Source of the DNA: Anaerolineales bacterium
Lineage (GTDB): Bacteria; Chloroflexota; Anaerolineae; Anaerolineales; E44-bin32
NCBI GenBank assembly: GCA_041573795.1
Contig: JBFFQB010000002.1
Location: forward strand, 46,749 to 110,748
DNA: 64,000 nt
Direction of reading: 5' to 3'
Position 1 is the first letter of the stretch. The number at the start of each line of letters is the position of its first letter. The notes beneath the pieces are model-generated. The model made no database searches. It saw only the letters and a list, made by a program, of their open reading frames with translations, and was not told the DNA's origin. This document shows positions 10,502-36,052 of this stretch, one piece after another. The translations under genes were made by a program, and so were the position numbers.

Positions 10502-10831
10502 ACTCCAATTTCTTACACTCGCCGTCTCTAGAACATCTGTACGAATCTCTCATTTATAACCATCACAACGAGCTCGTCTCGTTCTCTATCGATATCCAGC
10601 ACCCTGGAGCAGGGGAGGCAGCGTTGTGCTTCGGCAGTCCACGAATTCAGAATCCCCTCTGACCGCGAGAGATTTCTCCATACAAATTCGTACCCTTGGC
10701 TGGATAGCGTCTGGTGGTGTGGGGGGCTTGACAGGCCGACAAGAAGAGATAAAATTGGCTTATGGTTATGATAAGTACTATTATAGCAAGCATAAATTGG
10801 CTTTGGTAGAAGTGCCGGGAAGGAGTAGTTC

Positions 10832-19306: not shown

Positions 19307-20676
19307 ATCTTATTGTGGCTATGCGCAACAAGGTCATTCTCTAAATACTGATTAAGATCTTCAAGTGCGCGTTTGGCATGAGCCGCAGCACGCTGCCGGC
19401 GATTTCGTCGAACCCCATCGTCCAACACAGGCAATAAACCCAGGTTTGCTTTCATCGGCTGGAAGGTCTCGGGCTCTGCATGGGAGACATAGTGACAGAG
19501 CGCTCCAAGCATCGTCGTTAAAGGCAACACCATTAAGGGCTCGTTATTAAGCATGCGCACAAGATTTTTCCCGGCGAGCAGCCCAGTGGCAATATTGCCG
19601 AGGTAGCCCTCCACCCCGGTTATTTGACCCGCGAAGTAAAGATCACTGCGATTTCGAAATTGCATTGTGGGATGGAGTAGATCGGGTGCCTTAAGGAAAG
19701 TATTACGATGCATTTGACCATAGCGGAAAAACCGGGCATCTTCTAAACCTGGGATCATCCGCAGTACGCGACGCTGTTCCGCATAGGTCAGATTGGTCTG
19801 GAAACCAACCAGGTTGTAAAGCGAGCCGGCAAGATCATCTTGCCGCAGTTGGACAACTGCGTAGGGGCGCTTCCCGGTCCGGGGATCCTTCAATCCTACA
19901 GGCCTCATCGGTCCATAGGCAAGCGAATCTTCACCGCGCTCTGCAATGATTTCTATCGGAAGACATCCTTCGAAGAACGTGTGGGAACCGGCTTTAACAC
20001 CTGCGTGTATAGCCGCTTCAAACTCGCGCAACGGGATTCTCTCTGCCGACTGAACCTCTCTTACAAAGCGGTAATATTCTTCTTTATTCAGCGGGCAATT
20101 GATGTAATCTCCCTTTTCCATTTCACCGCGGCCATAACGCGAGCTTCGAAACGCTATCGTCATATTGATCGTCTCATACTCAACAATTGGAGCAAGCGCA
20201 TCGAAGAAGAAAAGTTGATCTTCACCGCTCATGAGCTTAAGTGCTTCCGCAAGTGCAGGCGAGGTGAGCGGGCCTGAGGCGACGATACAAGGTCCTTCAG
20301 GTACTTCCAGGACCTCTCCGCGCACAATATTAATGCCTGGGTGGGCATCAAGAAAGCTGGTTACCCTTTGTCCGAATTGCTCCCGATCTACTGCCAGTGC
20401 GCCACCAGCCGGTACTGCAGTCTCTTCAGCGATGCGCAGCAACAATGACCCCATCACCCGAAGCTCGCTCATCAAAATACCCGATGCACGATCGGGTAAT
20501 TTTGACCCAAGAGAGTTAGAACAGACCAATTCAGCGAGTTTATCAGTTTGATGCGCGCCAGTGGCTACGGCTGGTCGCATTTCATAAAGGACGACCTCGT
20601 GCCCAGCTTCAGCCACTTGCCATGCCGCTTCGCTCCCGGCCAACCCGCCCCCGATAATTTTGACCTTGCTGCTCAT
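19303..20676 (-). CDS. trmFO: methylenetetrahydrofolate--tRNA-(uracil-5-)-methyltransferase TrmFO
   Basis: The ORF extends to 20733, but ATG 20676 gives the canonical MSSKVKIIGGGLAGSEAAWQ dinucleotide-binding start. The longer start would run over an intergenic promoter motif. Confidence 0.95.
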   Translation of the reverse strand: MSSKVKIIGGGLAGSEAAWQVAEAGHEVVLYEMRPAVATGAHQTDKLAELVCSNSLGSKLPDRASGILMSELRVMGSLLLRIAEETAVPAGGALAVDREQFGQRVTSFLDAHPGINIVRGEVLEVPEGPCIVASGPLTSPALAEALKLMSGEDQLFFFDALAPIVEYETINMTIAFRSSRYGRGEMEKGDYINCPLNKEEYYRFVREVQSAERIPLREFEAAIHAGVKAGSHTFFEGCLPIEIIAERGEDSLAYGPMRPVGLKDPRTGKRPYAVVQLRQDDLAGSLYNLVGFQTNLTYAEQRRVLRMIPGLEDARFFRYGQMHRNTFLKAPDLLHPTMQFRNRSDLYFAGQITGVEGYLGNIATGLLAGKNLVRMLNNEPLMVLPLTTMLGALCHYVSHAEPETFQPMKANLGLLPVLDDGVRRNRRQRAAAHAKRALEDLNQYLENDLVAHSHNKI

Positions 20677-20701
20677 GTGCGAGATTTTATCATGCTGAAT
20701 T

Positions 20702-20717
20702 TGGCACACATCTTGCA
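20702..20717 (+). promoter_or_regulatory. sigma-54 (-24/-12) promoter P0 upstream of rpoN
   Basis: TGGCACacatcTTGCA, exact match to TGGCAC-N5-TTGCW with GG-N10-GC spacing. It lies in the trmFO/rpoN divergent gap, 52 nt before the rpoN ATG. Confidence 0.7.
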
Positions 20718-20769
20718 ACACCTTTGCTTGCATTTTCGGATCATTGTATACTCACCTGCGAGGCGGAAC

Positions 20770-22182
20770 ATGTATCAATATCAAGATCAATCACTCAGAC
20801 CCCTGACAACGGCACACTTAGCCCAGACCATGAGTCTGCTTGTTCTCTCGAATATTGAGCTTCGAGACCGGGTCATCTCGGAATTATCCTCCAATCCTGC
20901 CTTAGAGCTGCTCGATGAACGAGTTTGCCCAAGCTGCCACAAACCCTTGGGAACAGGCGCGATTTGTCCTGCCTGCAGCCGTCACCAAGATGCTGAAGGC
21001 GATCCAATCGTCTTCCTATCCCCGCGCGATTCAATTCGCCCCTCGCGCAAGCGCCAGTTAGACGATCAGCCGCTTGATCGCGAACCAGCAGCTCCAGAAG
21101 ACCTTACCACCTATGTCATACGCCAATTGGCCGCAGAACTCCTTCCAGAAGATCGGCGCCTGGCACTCTATATCTTGGCGAGCCTTGATGATGACGGTTT
21201 TCTCAATGATCCGCCTGCGCTGATTGCTCAGGCAACTCGCTCGAGCCTAACGCAGGTACAACGCGTGATTGCACTCATCAATTCCGCTGACCCAATCGGG
21301 CTGGCTACCTCTGGACCAAAACAAGCCTTGCTGATTCAGCTCGAACAGCTTGCCGCAGATCACCCGATTGCCGAGTTGGCACGCGACATGCTGACGGAGA
21401 CTTTCGCGGCATTAGGTCGTAGAGAGTATGACAAAATCGGCCATGAGCTTGAGGTCAAACCCGCCAAGGTGCGCCAAGCGGCAGAATTCATCCACGACAA
21501 TCTAAACCCCTACCCTGCGCGTGCCAACTGGGGATCAGGCCACCACCCCATGTCAGGCGATTCGAACGTTTACCATACACCCGATATCATGGTTACTCAC
21601 AATCCCAATACCGAGCAGGGTCCCTTGGTGGTCGAAATCTTTTCCCCGCTTTCGGGTTGGCTACGAGTAAACCCGCTATTCAAACAAGCCATGGACAGCG
21701 CTTCAGCTGACCAAGCTGAGGATTGGTCCGAGCAGCTCGAAAAGGCTAACCTCTTTGTGAAATGCATCCAGCAGCGCAACAATACGATGCGCCGACTCAT
21801 GCAGCTGCTTGTGTCTCAGCAGGAAACGTTCATCCTAGAAGGTGCCCGCCACTTGAAACCCATGACCAGGGCACAGATTGCTGATCAGGTCGGTGTGCAC
21901 GAATCGACGATTTCACGCGCGGTTGCGAATAAATCCGTTGCGCTTCCAGATGGGCGCATCATCCCATTGGCCAAGTTCTTCGACCGAAGCTTGTCTGTCC
22001 GTGACCGGATAAAGGAAATTGTTCGTAACGAAACTAACCCTCTTACCGACGATCAAATCGTTGCGCTCCTGAAAAAGGATGGGGTTAAAATTGCTCGCAG
22101 AACCGTGGCGAAATATCGGTCGATTGAGGGAATCTTACCGGCGCGGTTGCGGGGTGAGCATAAGCTATCCCAAGCAGCATAA
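20770..22182 (+). CDS. rpoN: RNA polymerase sigma-54 factor RpoN
   Basis: Region I LTTAHLAQTMSLLVLSNIELRDRV, C-terminal HTH and RpoN box ARRTVAKYR. The ORF-track start 20548 overlaps trmFO on the other strand; ATG 20770 is preferred. Confidence 0.9.
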   Translation: MYQYQDQSLRPLTTAHLAQTMSLLVLSNIELRDRVISELSSNPALELLDERVCPSCHKPLGTGAICPACSRHQDAEGDPIVFLSPRDSIRPSRKRQLDDQPLDREPAAPEDLTTYVIRQLAAELLPEDRRLALYILASLDDDGFLNDPPALIAQATRSSLTQVQRVIALINSADPIGLATSGPKQALLIQLEQLAADHPIAELARDMLTETFAALGRREYDKIGHELEVKPAKVRQAAEFIHDNLNPYPARANWGSGHHPMSGDSNVYHTPDIMVTHNPNTEQGPLVVEIFSPLSGWLRVNPLFKQAMDSASADQAEDWSEQLEKANLFVKCIQQRNNTMRRLMQLLVSQQETFILEGARHLKPMTRAQIADQVGVHESTISRAVANKSVALPDGRIIPLAKFFDRSLSVRDRIKEIVRNETNPLTDDQIVALLKKDGVKIARRTVAKYRSIEGILPARLRGEHKLSQAA

Positions 22183-22196: not shown

Positions 22197-24158
22197 TTGG
22201 CGAGAGATACAACACCCACAAATCCGATCGCACGCTTTTTTAAATCAGAGCCGCATCGTGAACTGTTCGACACACTTGCGGATACGCTCGACAGCGCCGT
22301 CCTGGTTCTCTCCGGGACGGAGCCGCGTTTAATAACCTGCAATCACCAGTTTCTGCTGATGACTGGTTTCGCCCGCAAGGACGTTGAATCACTCTCTCCT
22401 TCTGATCTCTTTACAGAAGTTGAAGGACAGGCTGCCCTCGATAAAATCCTGCAACCCTGGGATACGCCCGATTGTCAGCTGAATGAAGTTCCCATCCGAA
22501 CCCAATCAGGCGAGTTGCTTTGGATCGACCTTCAGGCTTTCTCGGTCACGCCCTCTCATGAGGTTGTCCTCGTACTTTCAAGACCATCGCAAGAACGGGT
22601 GAGTAGTGAAGCACATCAACGCGCAGAAGCTGAGCGCATGTCTTTACTTATGGAAATATCGGATCTTGCCATCGAGAGCGGCGCCGCCACGTTAACTCTG
22701 CTCCTTGAGCAAATCAAGAAACTCCTTTCAGCAAGCTTTGCAGGCATGTATCAGGTTGATCCGAGTTCGCCAGCCTATACATTGGTCGGTACTCTACCCC
22801 CCGCTTTCCCGGAGCAAGTCGACGACAGCGTAATCGGAACCTTACCCAGGCATTCGCGCTGGTCGATTGGACATCGCCCGGAGCATGAGCTCGCCCGTGC
22901 CGCACGCGCAGCTGAGGTCCGTCATCTTCGCACAACCCGAATTGGTGACGAAAGCTCGTGGGTAGGCCTTCTGGTCGTCTGTTGGGATGAGGAGCTCACC
23001 GAAGGGGAAGATATCGAAACCATCATGCAAGTCGCAACAAATTTATGCCACGCCGCGCTGCATGTCGGCCTTCTGCGTTCCAGCACAACTGAGAGCGAAC
23101 TTGTGCTCAATCAGCTTGAGGATCAGATTGAGCATCTTTACGAAGGAATTTCAGACACACTGCTAATCGTAGATTCAGAATTATCCATCATGCGAGCGAA
23201 CGCAGCTCTCGAACGCCTGCTCGGTTTCTCTGCTGAAGAAGTCATCAATCGTCCAGTCCAGGATATCTTGGTAGGACCTGAAGATGTTACGGTGACACTT
23301 TTAGATGCGCTCGGCCATCAACGCGAATCGGAACGATCGAAGCTTGTGCTGCACCATCGCGAGGGAAATCCTTTGCCAATACACCTGCGCGCAGTGCCCT
23401 TAGAGATGGCAGGTGAGACCCAACTGCTCCTCGTCCTCAAGGATCAATCGGAGCAACAAGCGATCGAAGATCAGACAGAAAGTCTGGCGCAGCGGGCCCT
23501 CCTGGGTGAGGTCACTGCTATATTCGCGCATGAAGTTCGCAATCCTATCAATAATATCTCGACTGGCGTTCAACTCATCGCTTCCCGCCTGGGACAGGAT
23601 CATCCGCAATATGAAGCCCTCGATCGCATTCGTACGGAATGCACTCGCTTAGATCAGCTGATGAGCGATGTCCTCTTCTTCGCCCGTCCGTTAGAATTGA
23701 AAATGGAAGAGATCGACCTATCCGAGATGATGGATCGTATCCTGGCTCGTTGGACACCACGTTTTCAACAATCGAAAGTTCGCTGCCAAACCATCTTCCA
23801 AAAGGAGCTTCCGCCTGCATCTGTTGATCCCCGAACGTTCGAGCGCGTACTCGTCAACTTGATCAGTAATGCCCTTGAAGCTATGGCTGATGGGGGTACA
23901 ATCTCCATTTCAATTGGGTTTGCTGAAGAGGGTCCTAAAGATCAGCTGGAGTTAAAGGTCGCCGATACGGGTCCGGGGATCCCGGCAGATAAGATTCAAC
24001 GGATCTTCGACCCCTTCTTCACAACCAAGAAGGATGGCACAGGACTTGGTCTTGCTATTAGCCGTCGGATCATGACTGCTCATCGTGGCACCATTCAGGT
24101 CGAATCATTTCCTGATGCCGGCACGGTTTTCACGATCCATATTCCTGTAGCAGCGTAA
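22197..24158 (+). CDS. soluble multi-PAS sensor histidine kinase (NtrB-like)
   Basis: No TM segments; PAS-like blocks; H-box FAHEVRNPINNI; N/G boxes NLISNALEAM, DTGPGIP, GTGLGLAISR; 14 nt after rpoN. Confidence 0.85.
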   Translation: MARDTTPTNPIARFFKSEPHRELFDTLADTLDSAVLVLSGTEPRLITCNHQFLLMTGFARKDVESLSPSDLFTEVEGQAALDKILQPWDTPDCQLNEVPIRTQSGELLWIDLQAFSVTPSHEVVLVLSRPSQERVSSEAHQRAEAERMSLLMEISDLAIESGAATLTLLLEQIKKLLSASFAGMYQVDPSSPAYTLVGTLPPAFPEQVDDSVIGTLPRHSRWSIGHRPEHELARAARAAEVRHLRTTRIGDESSWVGLLVVCWDEELTEGEDIETIMQVATNLCHAALHVGLLRSSTTESELVLNQLEDQIEHLYEGISDTLLIVDSELSIMRANAALERLLGFSAEEVINRPVQDILVGPEDVTVTLLDALGHQRESERSKLVLHHREGNPLPIHLRAVPLEMAGETQLLLVLKDQSEQQAIEDQTESLAQRALLGEVTAIFAHEVRNPINNISTGVQLIASRLGQDHPQYEALDRIRTECTRLDQLMSDVLFFARPLELKMEEIDLSEMMDRILARWTPRFQQSKVRCQTIFQKELPPASVDPRTFERVLVNLISNALEAMADGGTISISIGFAEEGPKDQLELKVADTGPGIPADKIQRIFDPFFTTKKDGTGLGLAISRRIMTAHRGTIQVESFPDAGTVFTIHIPVAA

Positions 24159-24172: not shown

Positions 24173-25441
24173 ATGAGTGCGACAGTATTAATCGTCGATG
24201 ACGAAGCACCGGCCAGAAATTTTATTAGCGAGGCTTTAAGTGACGCTGGCTATGAAGCCATTGAGGCGGGGTCCTTAAAAGAGGCCAATAAAGTTATTGA
24301 CACCGGAGCAGCCGATATCATCCTGCTGGATGTCATGTTACCGGATGGCTCTGGGTTGACCCTGCTTGACCGCATATCCATGGAATCCCCTCGCCCGCCA
24401 GTGATCCTGATCACCGCATTCGGTGAGGTTGATACAGCAGTAGAGGCGATGAAGAAGGGTGCTCAGGATTTTCTCCAGAAGCCACTCGATCTCGAGCGAC
24501 TGCAACAAGCAGTCGAGCGATCGTCAGAGGTCGTCTCCCTGCGAAGGGAACTTGATTTACTGCGCCGCTCTTCCACCGGTGATATCGAAATGGTTGTAGG
24601 CGAAACTTCGACGATGAAACAAATTATGCTTGAGGCAGAGAGAGCCGCCTCGGCTGCTGTCTCCGTTCTCATCACCGGTGAAACAGGGACAGGAAAAGAG
24701 GTATTAGCTCGTACGATCCACAGTATAAGCCCGCGCGCCGATAAACCCTTTATCCCCATTAACTGCGCCGCCCTACCGGACACGATGATTGAATCTGAGC
24801 TCTTTGGTCATGAGGCCGGAGCGTTTACAGGAGCACAAAAGCGCAAGCCGGGATTAATCGAAATCGCCGACGGCGGCATTCTTTTCCTGGACGAGATCTC
24901 TTCTACGAGACCTGAAATGCAAGCAAAGCTCCTGCGTGTTCTCGATGAACATAAGTTCCGTCGGGTGGGTGGTGTCAATGAAATTGATGTCGATGTCCAG
25001 ATCCTGGCGGCCTCCAACCGCGATCTTCCCGCCATGATCGGGGAGGGTACTTTCAGGGAGGATCTCTACTACCGCCTTAAGGTCGTTGACCTGCATCTTG
25101 TACCTTTACGCCAGCGCATTAATGACATACCCGCGCTGGTGGGTAACTTTATCCGTCAAATCAACCTCCGTATAGGCGGGATGGTAGAAGGGATCACACC
25201 CCGGGCGATCGATGCACTTAAAGCCCATTCTTGGCCTGGAAACATCCGCGAACTCCGGCATGTCATTGAACGGGCTATATTATTCTGTGATGAGGATATG
25301 ATTGACTTGCCTCATCTACCCCCAGATATCCAGGCGCTTGGAGAGAAACTTTCTTCGCCCACGCAAACCTCCAAGAAGCAAAGCACCGTAAAAAAGACCA
25401 GTGCAACAAAGAAGAAGACAAAGTCCAAGAAGAAATCCTAA
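24173..25441 (+). CDS. sigma-54-dependent response regulator (REC + AAA+ sigma-54 interaction domain) without recognisable C-terminal HTH
   Basis: REC (VLIVDDE...IILLDVMLPDGSG); Walker A GETGTGKE; GAFTGA loop; Walker B ILFLDEI; ESELFGHE. The C-terminus is a Lys/Ser/Thr-rich tail (KKQSTVKKTSATKKKTKSKKKS) instead of a Fis-type HTH. Confidence 0.9.
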   Translation: MSATVLIVDDEAPARNFISEALSDAGYEAIEAGSLKEANKVIDTGAADIILLDVMLPDGSGLTLLDRISMESPRPPVILITAFGEVDTAVEAMKKGAQDFLQKPLDLERLQQAVERSSEVVSLRRELDLLRRSSTGDIEMVVGETSTMKQIMLEAERAASAAVSVLITGETGTGKEVLARTIHSISPRADKPFIPINCAALPDTMIESELFGHEAGAFTGAQKRKPGLIEIADGGILFLDEISSTRPEMQAKLLRVLDEHKFRRVGGVNEIDVDVQILAASNRDLPAMIGEGTFREDLYYRLKVVDLHLVPLRQRINDIPALVGNFIRQINLRIGGMVEGITPRAIDALKAHSWPGNIRELRHVIERAILFCDEDMIDLPHLPPDIQALGEKLSSPTQTSKKQSTVKKTSATKKKTKSKKKS

Positions 25442-25449
25442 GCGCATAA

Positions 25450-25465
25450 TGGCATAGTCCTTGCA
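25450..25465 (+). promoter_or_regulatory. sigma-54 (-24/-12) promoter P1
   Basis: TGGCATagtccTTGCA with GG-N10-GC spacing; 9 nt after the EBP stop and 38 nt before ATG 25504 (GGAGG RBS in between). Confidence 0.65.
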
Positions 25466-25503
25466 ACATTCGCCTTCAGAAGTAATTCACTCTGGAGGCG
25501 AAC

Positions 25504-25836
25504 ATGATTCCCCTATCCTTTAACGATATTCAACTCATAATTGCGGCCTCAATATTCGTGCTGGGTTTCCTGCTGATCTTGATTGGCGCCCTCGTGATGG
25601 TCAGCAGAAGTTACTCTCGCGAAGTTCGGACATTGGCCGCACATACTGCCCGTCTTGGCCAGAAAGGCATTGCACAAGATATCACCGGCCTGGTAAATAG
25701 TGCGACGGAACTGGTTGCCTCCATCAATGCCTTGGTACGGACTGCCAGTGGGATCGGGCTGTTTTTGATCCTGCTGGGCATCACCATGCTTGCAGCCGCT
25801 TATTGGATCATTCAACAAATTCCTTGGACCATCTAA
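25504..25836 (+). CDS. small membrane protein (110 aa, two TM helices flanking a ~50-aa loop)
   Basis: GGAGG RBS; hydrophobic segments IIAASIFVLGFLLILIGALVMV and GIGLFLILLGITMLAAAYWII; first gene after P1. Confidence 0.6.
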   Translation: MIPLSFNDIQLIIAASIFVLGFLLILIGALVMVSRSYSREVRTLAAHTARLGQKGIAQDITGLVNSATELVASINALVRTASGIGLFLILLGITMLAAAYWIIQQIPWTI

Positions 25837-25855
25837 ACCCAGTAAGGGGTAAGTT

Positions 25856-28800
25856 ATGCTCAATGACGCCGCCATCCTCGCACAATTGAAAGAAGCATTC
25901 CAGCCTTCGGAGCTAAGCGCTACTATCACCCGCCTTCAGCGTGTTCCGGAAGTTTGGCAAGCGCTACATGACGGGGATTTTCTCCGCTTCGTGCTCGAAC
26001 ATCCAGAAGAGATCGAATGGACACCCAGCGCAATCGCCGATAGCTGTCTTCTCTATAAACGAGCCAATCAATCTGGAAGCGAGGATTCTTCGTCAAGCCA
26101 TTCGACACAGGCTGTATCAAATCTATTTGATCTGGCGACCGAGGCTCACAGCTTAGCGAAACAACTTAATCATTCGATCGCAGATACGCTGGAGACTCTA
26201 CAACCATCTAGATCGTGTTTCAGCCAGCTTTGCTGTGCCTGGGCGCATATTGATGAAACCTCCAAGGTGATAGAGCAGATCTTAGCCGCACAAGATCGTC
26301 AGATGACCGCCTTTTTGCTGGAAGTCCTTCGCGCCCAGTATGCAGATGCGCAGATACTTGAGATCGTCGAAACCCATGGCCCTGCGTTTGCTCACTATAT
26401 CCCTGAACTGCTGAAAGATGGAGAGAAGGAGATTGCACTCCTGTTGGCTGATCAAGTAAAGGATGATTTATCCGGGTCCTCAACCGGAGATGAGGCATTG
26501 CTGTATGCCTATGCGCAGGCAGTGGGCGGTGACTATGAGGGAGCTCATATCTCCCTTTCCTCTGCCTGGGATAACGCGACAGAAGCTACGGCATTGGTGG
26601 CCGATCAGTTAGCACAGGTCGCACGTCTTGAAGGCAATCCTTCTGTGGAGCTAGAAGCCCGGCGCCAGGCTGTCGAGAGAAGCTTTTCCCCGATCCGGCG
26701 AGCAGCGCTTGCTCGCTCGCTGGTTGAATCTGACCAGGCATATAACGCCTACCAACTGACTTCTCAGGCAGAGAGCATCGAAGAGCGGATAGCTTTCGGT
26801 ATGGCAGCCTTGAAGCAAGGCTTTCACAGCGAAGCATTGAGTGCCTTATCGCAGGTAAAGAATGAAGCGCTGCAGCTCGAGTACAAAGATACTTCCTGGC
26901 TACGTTGGATGGCTGAAGGCTTGAGCAGAAGCGGGGCGCTTGCAGATACGATAGAAACCACAACGTATATCGCCAGACTTTTGCCCCAGGATGAAAACAT
27001 CGCCCTGGAGCTAGCGGAGCTTCTCGAGCGAGCTGGAGATTTATCGGCGGCCGTAACTCAGGCTGAGTTCGCCCTTGCACTGAACCCACAATCAACAAAT
27101 GCTCGCAGAGTTTTAGCGCATACGCTGCGCCTCGATGGTCAAGCGGCAAAAGCTCTCGGATATTTCGAGCAAGTCGTGCAAGATGATCCATCCGTACACT
27201 TCGAGTACTGTGAATGTGCCCTAGAAGCGCAGGAGGATGATCTCGCCGTGGAAATCGCTACAACCCTGATGGGTGAGCATCCAGATTCTGCCATGGCGCA
27301 TTCCTTTTTCGCCCGAGCCAAACATCACCAAGGGGAACACGAAGTGGCGCGAGCCGCCATCGAGAAGGCCATCACCCTCGATAAGAGCAGTGTAGATCCC
27401 TGGCTGGTTCTCGCCGAAATCCTTGTAGCTACCGGCGAAAACGATGCTGCCGGTGAAACGCTGCTTCAGGCCATCCAGATTGCGCCAGAGAATGCCAAGG
27501 CACATCAAGCGCGCGCAGACTGGCTCGCTGCCCAAGATCGTTTCCATGAAGCGCGCGAGCATAGTGCCAGAGCGGTCGAGTTAGATCCAGGTTGCGCATC
27601 ATGGCTCGTCGCTGATGCCAGACTGCTGGCCAAGACCGGTGATCCTCAAGGTGCCCGTGCACGTTTGCAGCAAGCTTACGCGTTACAGCCAAAGAATTGG
27701 GACCTCATTCTTGAACTGGCCCGCAGTTATGAGTCATCTGGCGAGCTCGAGCAAGCTGTTCAGCTCATCGGAGACGCTCCTGGTGAGTTCGATGATGCCT
27801 TCCGCATTGATACTGGTCGCATTTTGATTAAGGCGGGGGTTGATGGAAACACCGAAGCTTTGCAAAAAGGCTTAGACCATTTCAAGCGGGCTCATCCCGA
27901 TGGGGAAACCCTACCGGATCATCTTTTCTGGTCAGCCCGCGCGAATGAGGTTCTGAAAGAATACAACAAATCACTTGGGCAGTACGAAGAATACCTGGCA
28001 CAGTTCGAAGGGCTTAAGCAGCACCGTACGCTCGAGGCGGTTCTGGGTTACTCCCGTGTTTCTTTAGCCCAGGGTAAGCCGGACCAGGTCATCGCTTTCC
28101 TCCAAGCCAATCGAGACAAGTTCCCGGCATCGATCGATGTGGTCAGCCTGCTCGCAGAAGCACAGCTCGCCAATGGCGAGGGGAAACAAGCCTATGAGAC
28201 TGCTAGAGAAGCGATCGCATTGAATCCTGTTTCAGTGGATGCCCATAGGCTCGTGAGCAAGACAGCTGAAGCGATAGGAGACATCCGTACTGCCATCGAT
28301 GCGGAGCAGGAGATTCTCTCTCAACAGCCGGAAACTGGCGCGAATTGGCGCCGCATGGCCCGATTGCACTTCAGCATTAGGGATACCGCCTCAGCCCGTG
28401 CGCACTTGGCTAAAGCAATCCATCTCGATCGCAGCGATGCGAAGTCTCTGGTCGAGCTTGCAGATTTAAGTGCCGAGTTTGATCTCAGCGGCACGGAGCT
28501 ACGCTTGATGAAACGTGCTGGAAAATTAGCACCCAGGGATCCAGGGCTACAGCTTCAGCTCGCTGAAGTGGCTGAGAGCTCGGGCGATTTTGATACTGCT
28601 TACGCAGCATTGATGTGCTGCCTTCAAGAGAAGAATGATGACGTGCAGTTGGTGAAACGAGCTGCAGAAGTGAGCTCTAAGGCCGGGCAGTCAGGACGAT
28701 CAATCGAGCTTTATGAACGCGTCCTGGAGAAAGATCCCGAAGATGCCGTAAGCCTTGTGGCACTAGCTGATACCTTCGAACAAATGGGAGATCCTCGGGC

Positions 28801-30928
28801 AAGTTTGAAGTATTACCAGCAATTGCTTGATCTCGCTACAGAGGAACCTGCGATCCTGGCCAAGATCGCCAGGGCATATCTTGATTTTGAGGATGCAGGT
28901 AAGGCACGCTCGATTATTGAAAGAGCTGTACATCTTCACCCCGATCATGTTGGTATTCAACTTGTTCAGGTCGAAGCATCCCTTCAGGCTGGCGATGACG
29001 AAAAAGCGCTGGAGATTGTAGAAAAAGTCATCGCGCAGTCCGCTCCTGACGCTCACACCCTGGCCCTGGCGGCCTTATGTGCCGTCATGACCGGTGACAT
29101 TGAGCAGGCCAGGGCTGGACTCGATGAAGCACTCCACGAAACCCACTTATCCTCCCAGGCATCGGCGGTCCTTTTGCGAGTTTGCGCCGCTTTGGGTGAA
29201 TGGCGGCTTTACTCCTCGCTGCTGAATGGCATTAGCGGGCTAGCTAAATCATCAGTAAAAGACGCAAGGTTGGCATTGAGGGCACTCCTGCGTGCACGTG
29301 ATTTAGCTTGGCTCCATACAAATTTATTGAACATTCGGGTGAATACGCCCGATGCAAAGGCAACGCAAGCTCGGATAGACAGCCTGTTTCAAGGTATTCC
29401 CACCGACGCGCGATTCATGAATTCGGCCTTCGAGATATTCGACCGATGGCAAATTCAACTCGAAAGCCCTATGTCTGAATTTGATGCCACCTTCGATCAA
29501 CTTTCCCACACCGAGCAGCAGGAGCTCATCCAGGCTGCGGCGATGGGGTTGATCAAAGCCAATCGCCCTTCCAAAGCACTCAGCTTATTGGATTCTCATC
29601 CACCGCTTGGCACCCAGCGGGGCTATCATGCGCTGTTGACAAGCATAGCGGCTCAGCAAGCAGATCAGCCCGCACGGGCAAAAGACTCTGCTGAACGAGC
29701 AACACGCTTTGCCGAGACGCGCCCAAGTGGTTCCTATCTCCTGGGTTCCCAGGCTCACGCAGAATCCGATATGGAGAGCGCAATTACTGCCATTAACGCC
29801 GCCTTGGCAATATGGTCAAATGAGCCCGCATGGCATGCTGATCTCGCTCGCATCTACATGCTTGGTGAGCGCAAGGAAGCCGCCCTTCCACACTTACAGC
29901 AAGCTGTTGAGCTGGATCCGCATGATTCCGAGTATCTGCTCGCACTTGCCCGAGCATACCGCAATGCCGGTGAATGGTCTCAAGCCGAAACAACGTATGC
30001 GCGCTGTTTGCAGGATTCACCATCAGCAGCACAGGTTTGGAAAGAAGCGGCCCAAGTTGCTTTAGTTAATGGGAATGCTTCCCAGGCCGAAAGCTGGTTT
30101 GAAAGAGCCTGCAGTTTGGCGCCCTCCGATGCTGTCTGCCTGATGGGATCGGCACAAGCTGCCCTACTTATGGATCAACCAAAACTGGCTGCCGATCGCG
30201 CCCAAAGCGCATACAAGCTTGCTCCAAATGAACCACAAGTTCTGGCTGGCTTCGCCGAGGTATTGGCAGTGCAAGGAAAAATGGAGAAGGCTATCCAGGC
30301 CTATGATCGAGCGTTGAAGATCTCCGGGGGAGATCCCCAAGTTCAGCTAGCGCGGAGCAGATTATTGCTGAAGAGTGGCCAGTATACCGATGCCATCAAT
30401 GACATTAATGCTGTCATTGCTACAGATGATTCTGATACCGACGCCTGGGCTCTACTAGCGGAAGCATATGAGCAGGCTTCACAAATGGACGAGGCACTCA
30501 ACGCAATCAATCACGCCATCGCAGATTCACCTCGTTCTGGCCCATACCGCCTGATCCAAGGACGAATGTATCGTAAGGCTGGTCAGCTGGATCAGGCCTT
30601 AAAAGTCTTGCGCGAGCTTGAGAATGACGAGCCCGACAACGGCTCACTACCTGCAGAACTTGGGAACGTCTATGAAGCCCGCAGAGAGACGGATGCGGCG
30701 CTTGAAGCCTACCTACGGGCAGTTGCACTCAATCCTGACGATATTCAATCCCACATGAGCGCTGGGATCATTTTAAAGGGCTTGAAATCCTACGAGCATG
30801 CCGCGCAGATGTTTGAACGCGTGGTCACAGCTCGACCTAACGACCCTAAAGCCTTACACCAACTCGCTGCGGTACGTGCATTGCAACTTGTACATGGTGG
30901 CATCGAGACCCAGGTGGTGACGACATGA
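25856..30928 (+). CDS. giant tetratricopeptide-repeat (TPR) protein, 1690 aa
   Basis: Uninterrupted ORF. From ~aa 300 onward there are dozens of 34-aa TPR-like units (recurring A..Y..AL.L.P....A...LA). The N-terminal ~230 aa are non-repetitive. Confidence 0.85.
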   Translation: MLNDAAILAQLKEAFQPSELSATITRLQRVPEVWQALHDGDFLRFVLEHPEEIEWTPSAIADSCLLYKRANQSGSEDSSSSHSTQAVSNLFDLATEAHSLAKQLNHSIADTLETLQPSRSCFSQLCCAWAHIDETSKVIEQILAAQDRQMTAFLLEVLRAQYADAQILEIVETHGPAFAHYIPELLKDGEKEIALLLADQVKDDLSGSSTGDEALLYAYAQAVGGDYEGAHISLSSAWDNATEATALVADQLAQVARLEGNPSVELEARRQAVERSFSPIRRAALARSLVESDQAYNAYQLTSQAESIEERIAFGMAALKQGFHSEALSALSQVKNEALQLEYKDTSWLRWMAEGLSRSGALADTIETTTYIARLLPQDENIALELAELLERAGDLSAAVTQAEFALALNPQSTNARRVLAHTLRLDGQAAKALGYFEQVVQDDPSVHFEYCECALEAQEDDLAVEIATTLMGEHPDSAMAHSFFARAKHHQGEHEVARAAIEKAITLDKSSVDPWLVLAEILVATGENDAAGETLLQAIQIAPENAKAHQARADWLAAQDRFHEAREHSARAVELDPGCASWLVADARLLAKTGDPQGARARLQQAYALQPKNWDLILELARSYESSGELEQAVQLIGDAPGEFDDAFRIDTGRILIKAGVDGNTEALQKGLDHFKRAHPDGETLPDHLFWSARANEVLKEYNKSLGQYEEYLAQFEGLKQHRTLEAVLGYSRVSLAQGKPDQVIAFLQANRDKFPASIDVVSLLAEAQLANGEGKQAYETAREAIALNPVSVDAHRLVSKTAEAIGDIRTAIDAEQEILSQQPETGANWRRMARLHFSIRDTASARAHLAKAIHLDRSDAKSLVELADLSAEFDLSGTELRLMKRAGKLAPRDPGLQLQLAEVAESSGDFDTAYAALMCCLQEKNDDVQLVKRAAEVSSKAGQSGRSIELYERVLEKDPEDAVSLVALADTFEQMGDPRASLKYYQQLLDLATEEPAILAKIARAYLDFEDAGKARSIIERAVHLHPDHVGIQLVQVEASLQAGDDEKALEIVEKVIAQSAPDAHTLALAALCAVMTGDIEQARAGLDEALHETHLSSQASAVLLRVCAALGEWRLYSSLLNGISGLAKSSVKDARLALRALLRARDLAWLHTNLLNIRVNTPDAKATQARIDSLFQGIPTDARFMNSAFEIFDRWQIQLESPMSEFDATFDQLSHTEQQELIQAAAMGLIKANRPSKALSLLDSHPPLGTQRGYHALLTSIAAQQADQPARAKDSAERATRFAETRPSGSYLLGSQAHAESDMESAITAINAALAIWSNEPAWHADLARIYMLGERKEAALPHLQQAVELDPHDSEYLLALARAYRNAGEWSQAETTYARCLQDSPSAAQVWKEAAQVALVNGNASQAESWFERACSLAPSDAVCLMGSAQAALLMDQPKLAADRAQSAYKLAPNEPQVLAGFAEVLAVQGKMEKAIQAYDRALKISGGDPQVQLARSRLLLKSGQYTDAINDINAVIATDDSDTDAWALLAEAYEQASQMDEALNAINHAIADSPRSGPYRLIQGRMYRKAGQLDQALKVLRELENDEPDNGSLPAELGNVYEARRETDAALEAYLRAVALNPDDIQSHMSAGIILKGLKSYEHAAQMFERVVTARPNDPKALHQLAAVRALQLVHGGIETQVVTT

Positions 30929-33588
30929 TTGACCGCAGTACTTTCATCAAAATCCTTCACACATCCCTGAGCGCAGGTAGATCAGATTTCGCACGGTTCA
31001 CCGCAATGGACTGGCTTGAAGCCTGGCCTGGGGATGCGAGCATACAGACCTACCTGGCCCGGGCCGAGATGGAATTGGGCTTGATTGACAATGCGATTGC
31101 GCGAGTTGATCAAGTCATCATGGTCGATCCAGAACAAATCGATGCCTATGAGATCAAGGCGAGCGCCTTACGATCGAAGGGCGCGATCGAGCAATCCAGG
31201 ATCTATCATGCTTGTGCACAGATCTTAAAAATGAATCCGCTCGAACCAGGTCAAGCACCTACATGGGCGGTCCATTTGCAGGAAGCCATGGGGCATGTTC
31301 GAGCAGCTGACTATGACGCGGCGGTAGCAAAAGCCTCGATCTCCCTTACCGCCGATCCTCAGTTAATCCTGCCGACCTATTCCTTGATGTCAATTCAGCG
31401 CACAGCTGGGAAAGATGCTGATGCCCTTGCGGTGGCGCAAAATGGCTATGACCGTTGGCCTGAATGTGTCGCTTTCTTGCTGATTCTTGGTCAATCGTTA
31501 GTCGACCAGGGTGAGTCGCAAGCGGGGATCGAACTCCTGCATCATGCAGCAAAGAACGATCCCAGTGGTCAAATTACGAAGCGCTTCTGGGGGGAACATC
31601 ATGCCTATGCTGATTTATGGCCATTGAACTTGCAAGCTGAGTTGAGTAGGCCCATCCCTGCCGATGTTGCTACAAGGCTCGGTGATAATCAGCTGGCTGG
31701 ATCGATTCGGGAGAAAAGCCCCCAGCCCGAGCCCAAACCCACAGCGTGTGACTGTGACACTCATACGATCGTAAAGAAAGATGATCAAGTAGCACCCGAG
31801 CGTAAGCAGCAGGCCAAAATAAACCTGGAAGCTCTACCTTCACCGAAACCCTGGGAAGCTTTTAAAGGACCGAATGCAAGTGAAGCTGGCATTAATCTCA
31901 ACCCAACCCAGGTGCCTGAGACTTTGGTAGAGATCGAGAATGAGTTCAGGCAACTTGCTCAAAGATTAAACGCAAGGAAAAGGGGCAGGGATGAAGATGG
32001 TCGCTCCCCAGCTTATATCGTTCTGTCGAGCCGCTCACATATGCTACAGCGCTTCGAAGAAGCTGGCTTCCAATCCATTGATGAACGTATATTGAGCCTG
32101 GTTGAAAGTGTTCGTCGGCGCTATGGTTGGACAGCATACCGGATCTATATTGATGATCCCAGGACACTCGAACCCTTCGGGCTGTCTCCTGTCGATCCAG
32201 GCAACGCCTGGCAAATCAAGCTGCGTCTGGCCGACCTCGATCGGGCCCTAAGCGCACGGGGCGAGATGATCGGAGCACTATTGATCGTCGGTGGAAACGG
32301 CATCATCCCATTTCACCTGTTACCCAACCCAACCGATGATGACGATGAAGTCATCCCCTCGGATAATCCTTATGCCACTACGGATGAAAATTACTTCATC
32401 CCGGAATGGCCTGTGGGGCGTCTCCCCGGTGAGGAAGAATCGGAGTTTATTCTCCAGCAGTTGGACTATGCTCTCAAAAGCCACAATATCCAGGCTGCAC
32501 CCAGACCAACGATTGGACGCTTGTTCCGACTCCTGGGGTTTGGATTTCTCCGCATGCTCGCACCAAGCGTGAAGACGCTTGGCTATTCCGCCAGTATTTG
32601 GCGCAAATCTTCCTTCGCCGTATTCAAGACGATTGGGGATCCCAAGAACCTGATCACCTCTCCACCGATTGAAGCAACAAAGCTGCCTTCCGAGGCGATG
32701 CGACCGGTGCGACTATCCTATTTCAATTTGCATGGACTGGAGGACGCGCCTGAATGGTATGGGCAACGTGATCCTGCAAAAGACCACGAAGCCATAACGG
32801 AATTTCCCATCGCGCTCCGCCCAATCGATGTTGTTAACAGCGGTCGAGCGCCCAAGGTCGTGTTTACGGAGGCCTGTTACGGAGCGAATAGTATCGGTAA
32901 AACGAGTGAAACCGCATTAAGCTTAAAATTTCTAACCTCCGGGAGCCGGGCTGTTATTGGTTCAACCAAGATCTCCTATGGATCAATCCGACCTCCCCTT
33001 ATCGCGGCTGATCTTCTGGGTCAGCTCTTCTGGCAATTTCTCAATCAGCGCCTGCCTGTGGGTGAGGCACTTCGCCGAGCCAAGATCAAACTGGCAACCG
33101 AAATGCACCAACGACAGGGGTATCTCGACGGGGAAGATCAGAAGACTTTGATTTCGTTTGTTCTATATGGAGATCCTCTCTTCCAACCCAACCCATCAAA
33201 CCCGCATCCAGGGGAAAAGTCGGTCATTCGTCGGGTCAAGCGACCCTCCAATATGAAAACGGCTTGCGCCCTTGGTGGTAAGTCCATCTCTGAAGATGAG
33301 ATTTCCCCGGTGACAATGAAACGGATTGAACACCTCGTTGCCCAATACCTGCCGGGAATGCAGGAAGCTGTGTGCAGCATTCACAATCAGCACATAGAAT
33401 GCCGCGGCGGCGATCATGTTTGCCTTTCCCAGCAGTTCGATCAGAAGTCGATTCAACAGTCACCGGTTGGTTCCATGGTTATTACCCTTTCGAAGCATAT
33501 TGCTGATGGCCAACGACGGCATCCGCATTTTGCCCGTCTTACCCTGGATTCCCAGGGTAAGGTCATGAAGCTGGCTGTTTCGCGCTAA
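30925..33588 (+). CDS. TPR domain + peptidase C25-like (gingipain-like, clan CD) cysteine protease domain + C-terminal PepSY-like module
   Basis: ATGA overlap with the upstream TPR gene. C25-like block LLIVGGNGIIPF...SDNPYATTDENYFIPEWPVGRLPGEE. Candidate catalytic His in FNLHGLEDAPEWYG (CAT 32731-32733) and Cys in VVFTEACYGAN (TGT 32875-32877). Confidence 0.65.
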   Translation: MIDRSTFIKILHTSLSAGRSDFARFTAMDWLEAWPGDASIQTYLARAEMELGLIDNAIARVDQVIMVDPEQIDAYEIKASALRSKGAIEQSRIYHACAQILKMNPLEPGQAPTWAVHLQEAMGHVRAADYDAAVAKASISLTADPQLILPTYSLMSIQRTAGKDADALAVAQNGYDRWPECVAFLLILGQSLVDQGESQAGIELLHHAAKNDPSGQITKRFWGEHHAYADLWPLNLQAELSRPIPADVATRLGDNQLAGSIREKSPQPEPKPTACDCDTHTIVKKDDQVAPERKQQAKINLEALPSPKPWEAFKGPNASEAGINLNPTQVPETLVEIENEFRQLAQRLNARKRGRDEDGRSPAYIVLSSRSHMLQRFEEAGFQSIDERILSLVESVRRRYGWTAYRIYIDDPRTLEPFGLSPVDPGNAWQIKLRLADLDRALSARGEMIGALLIVGGNGIIPFHLLPNPTDDDDEVIPSDNPYATTDENYFIPEWPVGRLPGEEESEFILQQLDYALKSHNIQAAPRPTIGRLFRLLGFGFLRMLAPSVKTLGYSASIWRKSSFAVFKTIGDPKNLITSPPIEATKLPSEAMRPVRLSYFNLHGLEDAPEWYGQRDPAKDHEAITEFPIALRPIDVVNSGRAPKVVFTEACYGANSIGKTSETALSLKFLTSGSRAVIGSTKISYGSIRPPLIAADLLGQLFWQFLNQRLPVGEALRRAKIKLATEMHQRQGYLDGEDQKTLISFVLYGDPLFQPNPSNPHPGEKSVIRRVKRPSNMKTACALGGKSISEDEISPVTMKRIEHLVAQYLPGMQEAVCSIHNQHIECRGGDHVCLSQQFDQKSIQQSPVGSMVITLSKHIADGQRRHPHFARLTLDSQGKVMKLAVSR

Positions 33589-33603: not shown

Positions 33604-33619
33604 TGGCACGCAACTTGCA
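33604..33619 (+). promoter_or_regulatory. sigma-54 (-24/-12) promoter P2 upstream of orf426-ftsZ
   Basis: TGGCACgcaacTTGCA, exact consensus with GG-N10-GC spacing. It lies in the 57-nt gap after the protease gene, 26 nt before ATG 33646 (GAAGGA RBS). Confidence 0.75.
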
Positions 33620-33645: not shown

Positions 33646-34926
33646 ATGTCCCTCAGCCAGCAACAACTCGGTTTTCACTATTATCCCGATACAGATCACT
33701 ATAGTGATTCAGATTTAAACACCTGGCTCCCGATACTCGAGAGTGCCGGCGCTAGCTGGTTGACGCTGCAGGCAAAGGGGAGCAAGAACATCCCTGAGCA
33801 CTTCCTTGCTGCGCTCAAGGCAAGTGGCATTCAGCCGATCATTCATATTTGCGAACCGATTGGATCATTGCGTATGGCGCAGGTCTACACAGCCTTAAAG
33901 ACCTACGCCGATGCCGGTGTCAATTACGTGCTCTTTTACGATCGACCGAATATGCGGGCATCATGGCCCGCATCCACCTGGAGCCATGAATCTTTGATAA
34001 GTCGCTACGTGGATGGCCTGCTTCCGATACTGGAGGCACAGCTCGAGATGGGCATGCTGCCAACCTTACCCCCGCTCGAGCCTGGAGGCGATTACTGGGA
34101 TACTGCCTTTCTGGAGTCCCTCCTCGCTCTGATGCAAAAAAGTGTCGATGCAGCGATTATGGACAAGCTCACGCTCTCGATCTACATGTGGACGTATGGC
34201 AGACCAGTCGATTGGGGACAAGGTGGACAGGTAGCCTGGCCTGATGCCCGGCCGTATCGTTCCCCTATGGGCTCCCAGGATCAGCGTGGCTTCCAGATTA
34301 ATGAGTGGTACCAAGAAATCGCACGGAAAATTCTCGGACGCACCTTACCGGTACTGGTTGTGGGGGGAGGCGCGGGTCCATCGGAAGCTTACGCCACCAC
34401 AGAAGCGCGACAGCTTGGCAACAACGAGGTCGCCCGTCATCTGGCGCAAGAAGGGCTTCCAGAGGAGATCCTCAATTTCAACTTTTACCCCCTTGCCACA
34501 GCCGAAAATCACCAGGATTATCCTGCTGCTTGGTATATCGCCCCCGTCGAAAAAGTCGTGCCCGACCCGTCCGATGAGCACGCGGTAGTCGCTCCCTTAG
34601 AAGCGCAGGCTCAAAAGAAGGGCATTGAGCACTATGTGCTTTTAGGATTTAGCAACCGGATGAACGGCCTTGATGTTTGGAATGCCATTGCCCCTCCGAT
34701 TATGAGTACTCGGGCGACTGTCGGTTTTTCGCTTGAAGAAGCCAAGCAAGCTGTTCGTGTGAGCATCGTTGGCGATTACGATACATTCCCGGCAATGATC
34801 GAAGATCAACTGAGAGCAAACGGCACAGAAACTGAACGCTTTGAAAAGTGGGACACGGATGAATTCCTACTTGCTGCCTCTACCTGGGCAACAAAGTCCA
34901 CGGCAACAGGAGTCGAAGATGAGTGA
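33646..34926 (+). CDS. hypothetical protein (426 aa), possibly a TIM-barrel glycosidase-like fold; translationally coupled to ftsZ
   Basis: Clean ORF behind P2. Alternating beta/alpha-like pattern (GFHYYP, WLTLQA, QPIIHI, NYVLFYDRPN, LPVLVVGGG). Its stop overlaps the ftsZ start by 8 nt (ATGAGTGA). Confidence 0.65.
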   Translation: MSLSQQQLGFHYYPDTDHYSDSDLNTWLPILESAGASWLTLQAKGSKNIPEHFLAALKASGIQPIIHICEPIGSLRMAQVYTALKTYADAGVNYVLFYDRPNMRASWPASTWSHESLISRYVDGLLPILEAQLEMGMLPTLPPLEPGGDYWDTAFLESLLALMQKSVDAAIMDKLTLSIYMWTYGRPVDWGQGGQVAWPDARPYRSPMGSQDQRGFQINEWYQEIARKILGRTLPVLVVGGGAGPSEAYATTEARQLGNNEVARHLAQEGLPEEILNFNFYPLATAENHQDYPAAWYIAPVEKVVPDPSDEHAVVAPLEAQAQKKGIEHYVLLGFSNRMNGLDVWNAIAPPIMSTRATVGFSLEEAKQAVRVSIVGDYDTFPAMIEDQLRANGTETERFEKWDTDEFLLAASTWATKSTATGVEDE

Positions 34927-36052
34927 AATGGGTACCTACGAACCTCTAGATTTTGCCTACCCTCCCAAGGAGCCCGCACGCGCCCTGGGCGAGGCCAAGA
35001 TTAAAGTTCTCGGACTCGGCGGTGGAGGCTCAAATGCGATCAATCGCATGATCGAGCTTGGTGTCGCTGGTGTCGATTTCATCGCCGCCAACACCGATCG
35101 ACAGGCGCTCGCATCCAGTCTGGCACCGGTCCGCCTCCAACTCGGGCCGCGCATCACCAGAGGATTGGGCGCTGGCGGTAATCCAAAGACCGGGGCTGCC
35201 GCAGCAATGGAGAGCAGCCGTGAAATCGCCAGCGCGCTTGCCGGTGCTGACATGGTATTCATCACGGCCGGCATGGGCGGCGGAACCGGTACAGGATCAG
35301 CGGCTATCGCTGCGGAGATCGCCCGTGAAATCGGGGCGGTTGTCGTAGCTGTGGTCACGATGCCATTCAGTTTTGAGATGAGCAAACGAGCTAAAAACGC
35401 TTTTGAGGGGGTCAAGCAGCTTCAACCCCATACGCATACGTTAATTACCGTGCCGAATGATAAGCTACTCCAGATTGTTCCACGCGACTTAAGCCTCGAA
35501 ATCGCCTTCCGACTGGCGGATGACGTCCTTCGCCAGGGGGTACAGGGTATCGCTGAATTGATCACCCGCCCCGGCATGATTAACGTCGACTTTGCCCATG
35601 TGCGTGAGCTCATGCTGCGAGGCGGCGGCGCCTATATGGCCATTGGTCTCGGGAAAGGTGAGGACAAAGCCAATGCTGCCGTTCATCAAGCCCTACACCA
35701 CCCCCTCCTCGAAATGGACAGCATCGACACCGCCAGCGGCGTCCTGGTGCATTTCACAGGCGGTGAGGATCTTACCCTTTATGAAGTCGGTGATGCCGTG
35801 ACGAATTTACGGCAATCGCTTTCCCCGGATGCGGACGTGATCCTGGGCGCTACCACGCAAAAATCGATGAATGGGCGGGCTCAAGCAATCTTGATCTTCA
35901 CCGGTGTTGGTGGCCGTCCGATGACATCAGCGGTGGCGGCTGAGGCTCAAGTCGAGCTCGAGGCGGTGGCAGCCCCCGTGATGCAAGCGTCGCAAGATCT
36001 GGATCTACCGACTTTCCTAAGACGTAGGGTCTCGACCGGGTCAGGGGGTTAA
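34919..36052 (+). CDS. ftsZ: cell division GTPase FtsZ
   Basis: IKVLGLGGGGSNAINRM, tubulin signature GGGTGTGSAAIAAEIA, T7 loop NVDFAHV, C-terminal peptide DLDLPTFLRRR. The ORF opens at 34841, but ATG 34919 has an AGGAG RBS and the canonical N-terminus. Confidence 0.95.
   Translation: MSEMGTYEPLDFAYPPKEPARALGEAKIKVLGLGGGGSNAINRMIELGVAGVDFIAANTDRQALASSLAPVRLQLGPRITRGLGAGGNPKTGAAAAMESSREIASALAGADMVFITAGMGGGTGTGSAAIAAEIAREIGAVVVAVVTMPFSFEMSKRAKNAFEGVKQLQPHTHTLITVPNDKLLQIVPRDLSLEIAFRLADDVLRQGVQGIAELITRPGMINVDFAHVRELMLRGGGAYMAIGLGKGEDKANAAVHQALHHPLLEMDSIDTASGVLVHFTGGEDLTLYEVGDAVTNLRQSLSPDADVILGATTQKSMNGRAQAILIFTGVGGRPMTSAVAAEAQVELEAVAAPVMQASQDLDLPTFLRRRVSTGSGG

Follow-up and report, generated by a model that had tools for sequence, protein, structure and literature searches.

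How does an activator of sigma-54 find its promoters when it has no domain with which to bind DNA? The question is raised by a gene (24173..25441, + strand; ATG start, 422 residues) in a 64,000-nucleotide stretch of the genome of an Anaerolineales bacterium (GenBank assembly GCA_041573795.1, contig JBFFQB010000002.1), the whole of which we refer to as the window. The initial annotation had described its product as an enhancer-binding protein with a receiver and an AAA+ domain, without a Fis-type helix-turn-helix (HTH), and with a basic tail that could provide non-specific affinity for DNA. Our analysis confirmed that the product is a sigma-54 activator in which receiver and AAA+ domain are complete and a DNA-binding domain is truly lacking, and hence a member of a known but uncommon class. 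Its gene lies in the same operon as a histidine kinase gene and an intact sigma-54 gene (rpoN, two genes upstream), and it co-occurs with three -24/-12 promoters (P1, P2, and P3) that are conserved in ~40 genomes.

The Receiver and AAA+ Domains Are Complete and the HTH Is Absent

A Pfam scan assigned three consecutive domains to the activator: Response_reg (PF00072; residues 5-115, 24185..24517, + strand; 1.2e-28), Sigma54_activat (PF00158; residues 142-307, 24596..25093, +; 3.1e-68), and AAA_lid_14 (residues 313-392, 25109..25348, +; 3e-24), the last of which is also the last folded element of the protein. The match to Sigma54_activat covers profile positions 2-167 of 168 and is thus end to end. 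All receiver residues expected of a phosphorylatable protein are kept, namely the acidic pocket, the phospho-acceptor aspartate, and the Thr/Lys pair (D9, D10, D53, T81, and K103). The AAA+ motifs named in the initial annotation are likewise present: GETGTGKE at residues 169-176 (Walker A), ESELFGHE at 207-214, GAFTGA at 216-221, FLDEI at 238-242 (Walker B), and, in the lid, ELRHVIERAILF at 360-371. The GAFTGA loop, which contacts sigma-54, is intact and invariant across a 21-sequence alignment.

Neither HTH_8 nor any other HTH family matched the activator at E≤10 in the Pfam scan, whereas the same kind of scan detected HTH_8 at 3.5e-12 in a related 472-residue protein (P0143). We also built our own hidden Markov model (HMM) from the C-terminal HTH regions of 14 outgroup activators. 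Three held-out controls scored 1e-30 to 1e-33 with this model, while it had no match in the activator or in the six reading frames of positions 25100-26000 (E>0.7, negative scores). The expectation that profile searches would recover the receiver and the sigma-54 interaction domain and miss HTH_8 was therefore borne out. The receiver places the protein among the NtrC-family response regulators, whereas the C-terminal Fis-type HTH (HTH_8) that also characterizes this family is missing. The residues left over are fewer than had been thought: about 55 were said to follow the lid motif, and 51 do follow ELRHVIERAILF, but the lid model still covers about 21 of these.

Among solved structures, the nearest relative is the receiver plus AAA+ portion of Aquifex NtrC1 (1NY5; E = 2e-100 over residues 4-381). 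An AlphaFold model of the activator was poor overall, with a mean predicted local distance difference test (pLDDT) score of 46, although the lid was modeled confidently (block means mostly 81-87). Residues 395-422 had pLDDT values of ~28-33 and no secondary structure; this agrees weakly with the proposal that no fold follows the lid. The input was a 21-sequence alignment of proteins 80-92% identical, and disorder of the tail is not demonstrable from this model alone. The same model placed a helix over linker residues 107-133 at pLDDT <50.

Loss of the HTH Is Shared by an Anaerolineae Lineage

We compared the activator with its orthologues in 44 Anaerolineales, Anaerolineae, and other Chloroflexota loci, using one genome per species; the intact orthologues come from Anaerolineales/Anaerolineae metagenome-assembled genomes (MAGs), and the loci cover 10 kb on either side of the activator gene. 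Two orthologues (L042 and L046) are frameshifted and 42 are intact. Every intact orthologue ends 2-10 residues past a conserved HLPPDIQ motif, except for the tailed proteins of the window and of locus L001. More than 120 protein clusters from Anaerolineales MAGs, 80-92% identical to the activator, are nearly all 391-397 residues long, and HTH_8 is absent from the precomputed Pfam list for these clusters. In a 50%-identity library, the nearest clusters (P0121, P0122, P0130, P0137, P0140, P0158, and P0167; 390-411 residues) consist of receiver, AAA+ domain, and lid only, and distant relatives at 45-49% identity likewise stop just past the lid. Most matches at ≤48% identity are 445-485 residues long, and activators of other phyla (37-46% identity, 444-467 residues) keep their terminal Fis-type HTH. 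Neither the intact orthologues nor the nearest 50%-identity clusters extend to an HTH, which outgroups keep. The comparison therefore indicates that the DNA-binding domain was lost long ago and that its absence is fixed in one Chloroflexota lineage, rather than reflecting a truncation or an assembly error.

The activator could not be assigned to any of the named activators that we considered. It scored 261.9 bits with the NCBIfam model for FlgR (NF049963; cut-off 750), which is less than its scores with the models for AtoC (NF008469; 395.8 bits, cut-off 714) and NtrC (TIGR01818; 380.9 bits, cut-off 558.6); its score with the NtrX model was 356.3 bits (NF051870; cut-off 600). The AtoC, NtrC, and NtrX alignments end at about profile position 400 of 452-463. 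Since all four scores lie under the curated cut-offs, we rejected orthology to FlgR, AtoC, NtrC, or NtrX, and the loss of the HTH in the Anaerolineae activator therefore looks independent of those known elsewhere. It also follows that "AtoC" and "Fis family", under which its relatives appear in databases, are loose names. Labels such as these, or "DNA-binding NtrC family", are annotation errors in that they imply a domain that the proteins do not have.

Three Conserved Sigma-54 Promoters Flank the Activator and Its Neighbors

The sigma-54 consensus TGGCAY-N5-TTGCW has three exact matches in the window, compared to 0.13 expected, and none of 100 shuffled sequences reached three. P1 (TGGCACACATCTTGCA, 20702..20717, + strand) lies in the divergent region between trmFO and rpoN, 53 nucleotides upstream of the rpoN start codon. 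P2 (TGGCATAGTCCTTGCA, 25450..25465, +) begins 9 nucleotides past the activator stop codon and 54 nucleotides before the next gene, and P3 (TGGCACGCAACTTGCA, 33604..33619, +) begins 16 nucleotides past the preceding stop codon and 42 nucleotides before a gene for a 426-residue protein. Across 730 kb of related loci we found 84 exact matches, all of them at the same three positions and none elsewhere (P2, 43/43 loci; P1, 25/38; P3, 16/28). When C was allowed in place of the first T (YGGCAY-N5-TTGCW), sites were recovered in nearly all remaining loci. P1, either exact or as a one-base variant (YGGCAY-N5-TTGCA), is positionally conserved in 35 of the 36 related loci covering the region, with a weaker variant in L056, and it is also found in the distant loci L072-L075. 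P2 is located between -50 and -56 relative to the start codon in 43/43 related loci, and P3, exact or with one base changed, between -22 and -48 in each of the 28 loci covering it. Because all 84 exact matches fall at these three positions, P1-P3 are, as judged from their conservation, genuine sigma-54 promoters.

Each of the three promoters is only 9-26 nucleotides from a neighboring gene. An upstream activator site would find no space between the genes, in keeping with an activator that has no contact of its own with DNA. We also looked near P1-P3 for inverted or direct repeats that might serve as upstream activator sites; apart from a leader hairpin behind P2 (see below), none was convincing. 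A scan of positions 20-37 kb for sigma-70 promoters and terminators gave counts no higher than those in shuffled sequence, with none in the three intergenic regions; at this level, the scan speaks neither for nor against a basal rpoN promoter.

The Lysine-Rich Tail Is Sporadic

The last 30 residues of the activator (393-422; LSSPTQTSKKQSTVKKTSATKKKTKSKKKS; 25349..25438, + strand) were correctly described as low-complexity and strongly basic. They comprise 11 Lys, 7 Ser, and 6 Thr, with no acidic residue, and carry a net charge of +11, compared to -19 for the rest of the protein; given the Lys frequency of the body, the enrichment has P = 7e-9. A tail of about this length occurs in only 2/42 orthologues, those of the window and L001, and in two metagenomic proteins (P0001 and P0002). 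Eleven further orthologues have short ends of 3-6 Lys/Arg (KKK to KKKKKK), and 26/42 have no basic residue past the lid. The four long tails differ in sequence, share a Ser/Thr/Pro/Lys composition, and stop at an unchanged distance from P2.

The DNA that encodes the tail is an A-rich AAG/AAA tract with a near-repeat (TCCAAGAAGCAA / TCCAAGAAGAAA), and it looks prone to slippage. P0014 and P0005 (the product of locus L046) are 412-415-residue forms whose C-terminal extensions run beyond the usual stop. In P0014, the sigma-54 promoter and leader that lie downstream are translated in frame as the extension, and the L046 open reading frame (ORF; 10001-11239) runs across the P2 site to the next gene. 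Both extensions were probably caused by insertions or deletions in the terminal poly-A tract, or by sequencing errors there. Read-through of this kind is what slippage in a poly-A run would yield.

An importance of the tail for function is not supported by its distribution: the 26 orthologues without a basic residue have an unchanged locus and promoters, and the family thus works in the absence of a tail. From these comparisons, the tail is a recent and variable addition in a few species, evolutionarily unstable and dispensable for the family.

Relationship to Known Activators without a DNA-Binding Domain

In the classification of Francke et al., proteins of this design form type Ic and account for ~4% of sigma-54 activators (PMC3162934), so their rarity was rightly pointed out. 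The activator domain is present and the DNA-binding domain is absent as a stable lineage trait in 42/42 intact orthologues and in the nearest 50%-identity clusters, which places the Anaerolineae protein in this type. Two precedents resemble it most. Helicobacter pylori FlgR, whose activation is described as independent of an enhancer in a passage of PMC3372290 that cites Brahmachary 2004, also combines a receiver and an AAA+ domain, has a dedicated kinase (FlgS), and acts at sigma-54 promoters that have no upstream activator sites (PMC3372290, PMC3162934). It differs in that the Anaerolineae activator is not an orthologue (262 bits versus a cut-off of 750), has no flagellar genes at its locus, shares its operon with an apparently self-activated rpoN, and in some members carries a basic tail. 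Chlamydia CtcC, for which action from solution has been proposed, likewise consists of a receiver and ATPase without a DNA-binding domain, has an adjacent cytoplasmic kinase (CtcB), and is closest to AtoC among named proteins (PMC7482065). CtcC belongs to another phylum, however, the two losses of the HTH appear independent, and the likeness is one of description rather than of direct sequence comparison.

Two other activators are informative for different reasons. Aquifex aeolicus NtrC1 (PDB 1NY5, 4L4U) aligns with the Anaerolineae protein through receiver, linker, AAA+ domain, and lid (E = 2e-100), but native NtrC1 has a C-terminal HTH and the Anaerolineae activator has none. In negative control of the NtrC1/DctD type, a continuous helical linker between receiver and AAA+ domain keeps the dimer inactive. 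The linker of the activator may likewise be helical, which would suggest that its unphosphorylated receiver represses ring assembly. Cereibacter sphaeroides FleT is also a sigma-54 activator without a DNA-binding domain (PMC11999139); in contrast to the Anaerolineae activator, with its full receiver and own kinase, FleT lacks a receiver too and works only in mixed rings with FleQ.

Francke et al. recorded sigma-54 only in "some Chloroflexi" (PMC3162934), and among the results examined in our literature search for sigma-54 or RpoN in Anaerolinea or Anaerolineae there was no paper on the subject. Activators of this type have been studied in few bacteria, chiefly Helicobacter and Chlamydia, and the Chloroflexota clade is an apparently independent, free-living example. 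It varies the theme through its sporadic basic tail, its rpoN-linked, putatively self-activating cluster, a zinc-ribbon-like motif in sigma-54, and the presence of ftsZ behind a sigma-54 promoter. With the sigma factor, kinase, activator, and three promoters in one conserved locus, it offers a compact natural system in which to study specificity and the gain of enhancer-independent activation.

A Model for Activation from Solution and Its Alternatives

We consider it probable that the protein is a phosphorylation-controlled, enhancer-independent NtrC-family activator of the FlgR/CtcC type that acts on promoters in its own locus. In this model, the adjacent cytoplasmic PAS kinase would phosphorylate D53 of the receiver, freeing the AAA+ domain for ring assembly, probably because a repression like that in Aquifex NtrC1 is lifted. 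The ring would contact sigma-54 at the -24/-12 promoters through its GAFTGA loops and ATP hydrolysis would open the promoter. Having no DNA-binding domain, the ring would reach the polymerase from solution, as has been shown experimentally for FlgR and proposed for CtcC. P1 would drive rpoN, the kinase gene, and the activator gene, an arrangement that implies positive feedback because all three lie behind it. P2 would drive the genes for a small membrane protein, a giant TPR protein, and a TPR/C25-like protein, and P3 those for a TIM-barrel protein and FtsZ.

Several points weigh against this model. The case for the clade is built from sequence analysis, and the comparison to NtrC1 repression draws on sequence similarity, the structural model being poor. 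Activator sites placed inside the neighboring coding sequences would be invisible to an argument from intergenic space. The survey was made at the scale of the locus, so that a partner with a DNA-binding domain, or further targets, could be encoded elsewhere. Finally, the promoter wiring is not identical across the whole clade: L073-L075 have no consensus site directly past the activator gene and instead have sites upstream of rpoN and near the TPR/C25 gene.

Two alternatives to this model were considered. A truncated pseudogene or assembly artefact that lost its HTH would account for the short length of the protein and for nothing else. We rejected this idea, which now has a negligible chance of being correct, because the same end recurs in 42/42 intact species-level orthologues and in the >120 clusters at 80-92% identity, and because no HTH remnant exists in any frame of 25100-26000, where the activator stop codon is only 62 nucleotides from the next gene. 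Alternatively, the activator might form mixed rings with a second activator that does bear a DNA-binding domain. There is precedent for this in FleT (PMC11999139, PMC3162934), and the search for other activators was confined to the window and related loci rather than whole genomes. However, we found no second sigma-54 AAA+ domain within the 64-kb window and, as judged by gene content, none in the 10-kb flanks of the ~44 related loci; moreover, the activator resembles FlgR and CtcC, and differs from FleT, in having a receiver of its own and a kinase encoded next to it. We regard mixed rings as improbable.

For the tail, the choice is between a function and none. Enrichment of AAG/AAA codons and the near-repeat in the coding DNA, the hypervariable length of the tail (0 to ~30 residues among close relatives), and the read-through forms P0014 and P0005/L046, the first of which has the extension expected from poly-A insertions or deletions, all favor the view that replication slippage near the 3' end of the gene produced the tail as a neutral, functionless by-product. 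Against this stand the long tails themselves, which are always in frame, end in a similar K-K-K-S/T, stop at an unchanged distance before P2, and maintain their composition across diverged sequences; we rate neutrality somewhat below an even chance. The other possibility is that the tail substitutes for the lost domain, with six tails per ring (~+66) tethering the activator non-specifically to DNA and raising its local concentration near promoters. The opposite charges of tail (+11) and body (-19) are compatible with this idea, four independent sequences that keep one composition despite their divergence suggest selection on composition, and short oligo-lysine ends recur in 11 further orthologues. 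Lys-repeat tails of actinobacterial TopA and mycobacterial HupB, which are also low-complexity and appended to a folded DNA-transaction protein, give DNA affinity or processivity (PMC7398561, PMC2932737), but those tails are lineage-conserved with DNA binding shown, whereas the Anaerolineae tail is sporadic and its binding is hypothesized by analogy. Since 26/42 orthologues with the same locus and promoters have no basic residue past the lid, a tail cannot be required, and substitution for the lost domain appears rather unlikely. A non-specific tether confined to this sublineage, which would give the acidic ring at most some affinity for DNA, is plausible.

A Leader Hairpin behind P2 and a Zinc-Ribbon-Like Motif in Sigma-54

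The leader between P2 and the next gene contains a conserved hairpin with 12-nucleotide arms (25469..25502, + strand) that folds in nearly all of the 44 loci. Its 3' arm holds the Shine-Dalgarno sequence of the downstream gene, which encodes a 110-residue protein, and its 5' arm spans the predicted P2 start. In an alignment of 34 sequences, 80% of the cells in the hairpin were paired, compared to 37-49% in slid controls, and covariation supported the pairing: 23 compensatory cells were found versus 10.3 in shuffles, none of 500 of which reached 23. If transcription from P2 starts ~12 nucleotides past the -12 GC, at about 25475-25477, the start lies inside the 5' arm; P2 transcripts would then be translatable, since the anti-Shine-Dalgarno arm would be missing from them. 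Transcripts that read through from the regulator operon, on the other hand, would carry the full hairpin with the Shine-Dalgarno sequence sequestered. The hairpin may thus block translation of read-through transcripts only.

In E. coli sigma-54, an acidic Region II follows directly past Region I. The Anaerolineales protein has in its place a zinc-ribbon-like motif, CPxC-X9-10-CPxC (residues 53-69; 20926..20976, + strand), which is kept in 38/38 Anaerolineales orthologues. The enhancer-independent system of H. pylori needs a separate zinc-ribbon protein, FlgZ/HP0958, to stabilize RpoN (PMC3372290), and the motif is a possible parallel to it.

Taken as a whole, the locus could be a self-contained Anaerolineae sigma-54 module: within ~15 kb it would hold a sigma-54 whose Region II carries a zinc-ribbon insert, together with its kinase, its sole activator, without a DNA-binding domain, and all target promoters. 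Such a module would switch itself on via P1, allow only P2-initiated transcripts to be translated by means of the leader hairpin, and drive a TPR/caspase-like set together with ftsZ, so that cell division or filament formation would respond to a two-component signal. We offer this composite only tentatively, and doubt that every part of it will hold. If ftsZ does depend on P3, the module would tie cell division in filamentous Anaerolineae to a two-component signal.

Gene Content of the Locus and Its Surroundings

The gene order is trmFO (- strand), followed on the + strand by rpoN, the PAS kinase gene, the activator gene, and the genes for the small membrane protein, a 1690-residue TPR protein, the TPR/C25-like protein, the TIM-barrel protein, and FtsZ. 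The order from trmFO to the TPR/C25 gene is kept in ~44 species, and the TIM-barrel gene and ftsZ follow wherever the locus sequence extends that far; the core order is also found in relatives whose activator is only 45-49% identical. rpoN (20770..22182, 470 residues) has the domains Sigma54_AID, Sigma54_CBD, and Sigma54_DBD and the RpoN box ARRTVAKYR, and its product aligns over its full length with E. coli and Klebsiella sigma-54 structures (E = 1e-35). Mechanically called ORF starts for rpoN (TTG at 20548) and trmFO (19303-20733, ATG at 20733) over-extend across the divergent promoter region; the true starts are likely ATG 20770 for rpoN and an ATG near 20676 for trmFO. The kinase gene (22197..24158, +) is always found between rpoN and the activator gene in related loci. 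Its product is assigned by Pfam as a histidine kinase (PAS...PAS-HisKA-HATPase), has no hydrophobic segment and is classed as cytoplasmic, and is presumed to be the partner of the activator.

The first gene behind P2 (25504..25836, +), conserved in position, encodes the 110-residue protein, which has two hydrophobic segments and no significant Pfam match. It is followed by the gene for the TPR-repeat protein (25856..30928, +; Pfam and synteny), which has no signal peptide or membrane segment, and by that for an 887-residue protein (30925..33588, +; synteny) with TPR at its N-terminus and a Peptidase_C25-like domain of clan CD at its C-terminus (PF01364, 1.2e-11). The 426-residue conserved hypothetical protein behind P3 (33646..34926, +) has no Pfam match and is predicted to form a TIM barrel with a C-terminal alpha/beta domain (AlphaFold pLDDT 82.6). 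The matches from a fold search with it were all weak and of a generic TIM-barrel or glycosidase-like kind (GH26, heparanase, sugar epimerases, and aldolases), at query-normalized TM scores of 0.3-0.4. ftsZ (34920..36052, +; Pfam Tubulin and FtsZ_C) begins with an ATG that overlaps the stop codon of this gene (ATGAGTGA, 34920-34926), an overlap which implies that ftsZ is co-transcribed behind P3. Both genes lie behind this promoter, and ftsZ is translationally coupled to the conserved TIM-barrel gene.

Other signaling genes occur in the vicinity. A response regulator of the receiver-HD-GYP type (HD_5) is encoded near the locus at 8435-9481 (+), and an orphan HisKA-HATPase kinase at 17098-18321 (-), between genes for an hflX-like GTPase and an M28 peptidase; the latter kinase is absent from the same spot in the distant relative L073. 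In another locus (L076, 8001-9827), we found a 608-residue relative of the activator (P0123; 53% identity) in which the receiver-AAA+-lid module is fused to a C-terminal CHAT (caspase-like) domain. Its neighbors are SNF2, MmeI-type restriction-modification, and KAP-NTPase/kinase genes. Neither rpoN nor a sigma-54 promoter lies close by, and the module may have been co-opted there into a defense-like island. Lastly, the window contains a tmRNA gene (6449-6842, -; Rfam RF00023, 145.8 bits) ~4 kb from a phage-integrase-family gene (10832-11824, +), a neighborhood that may be an integration hotspot.

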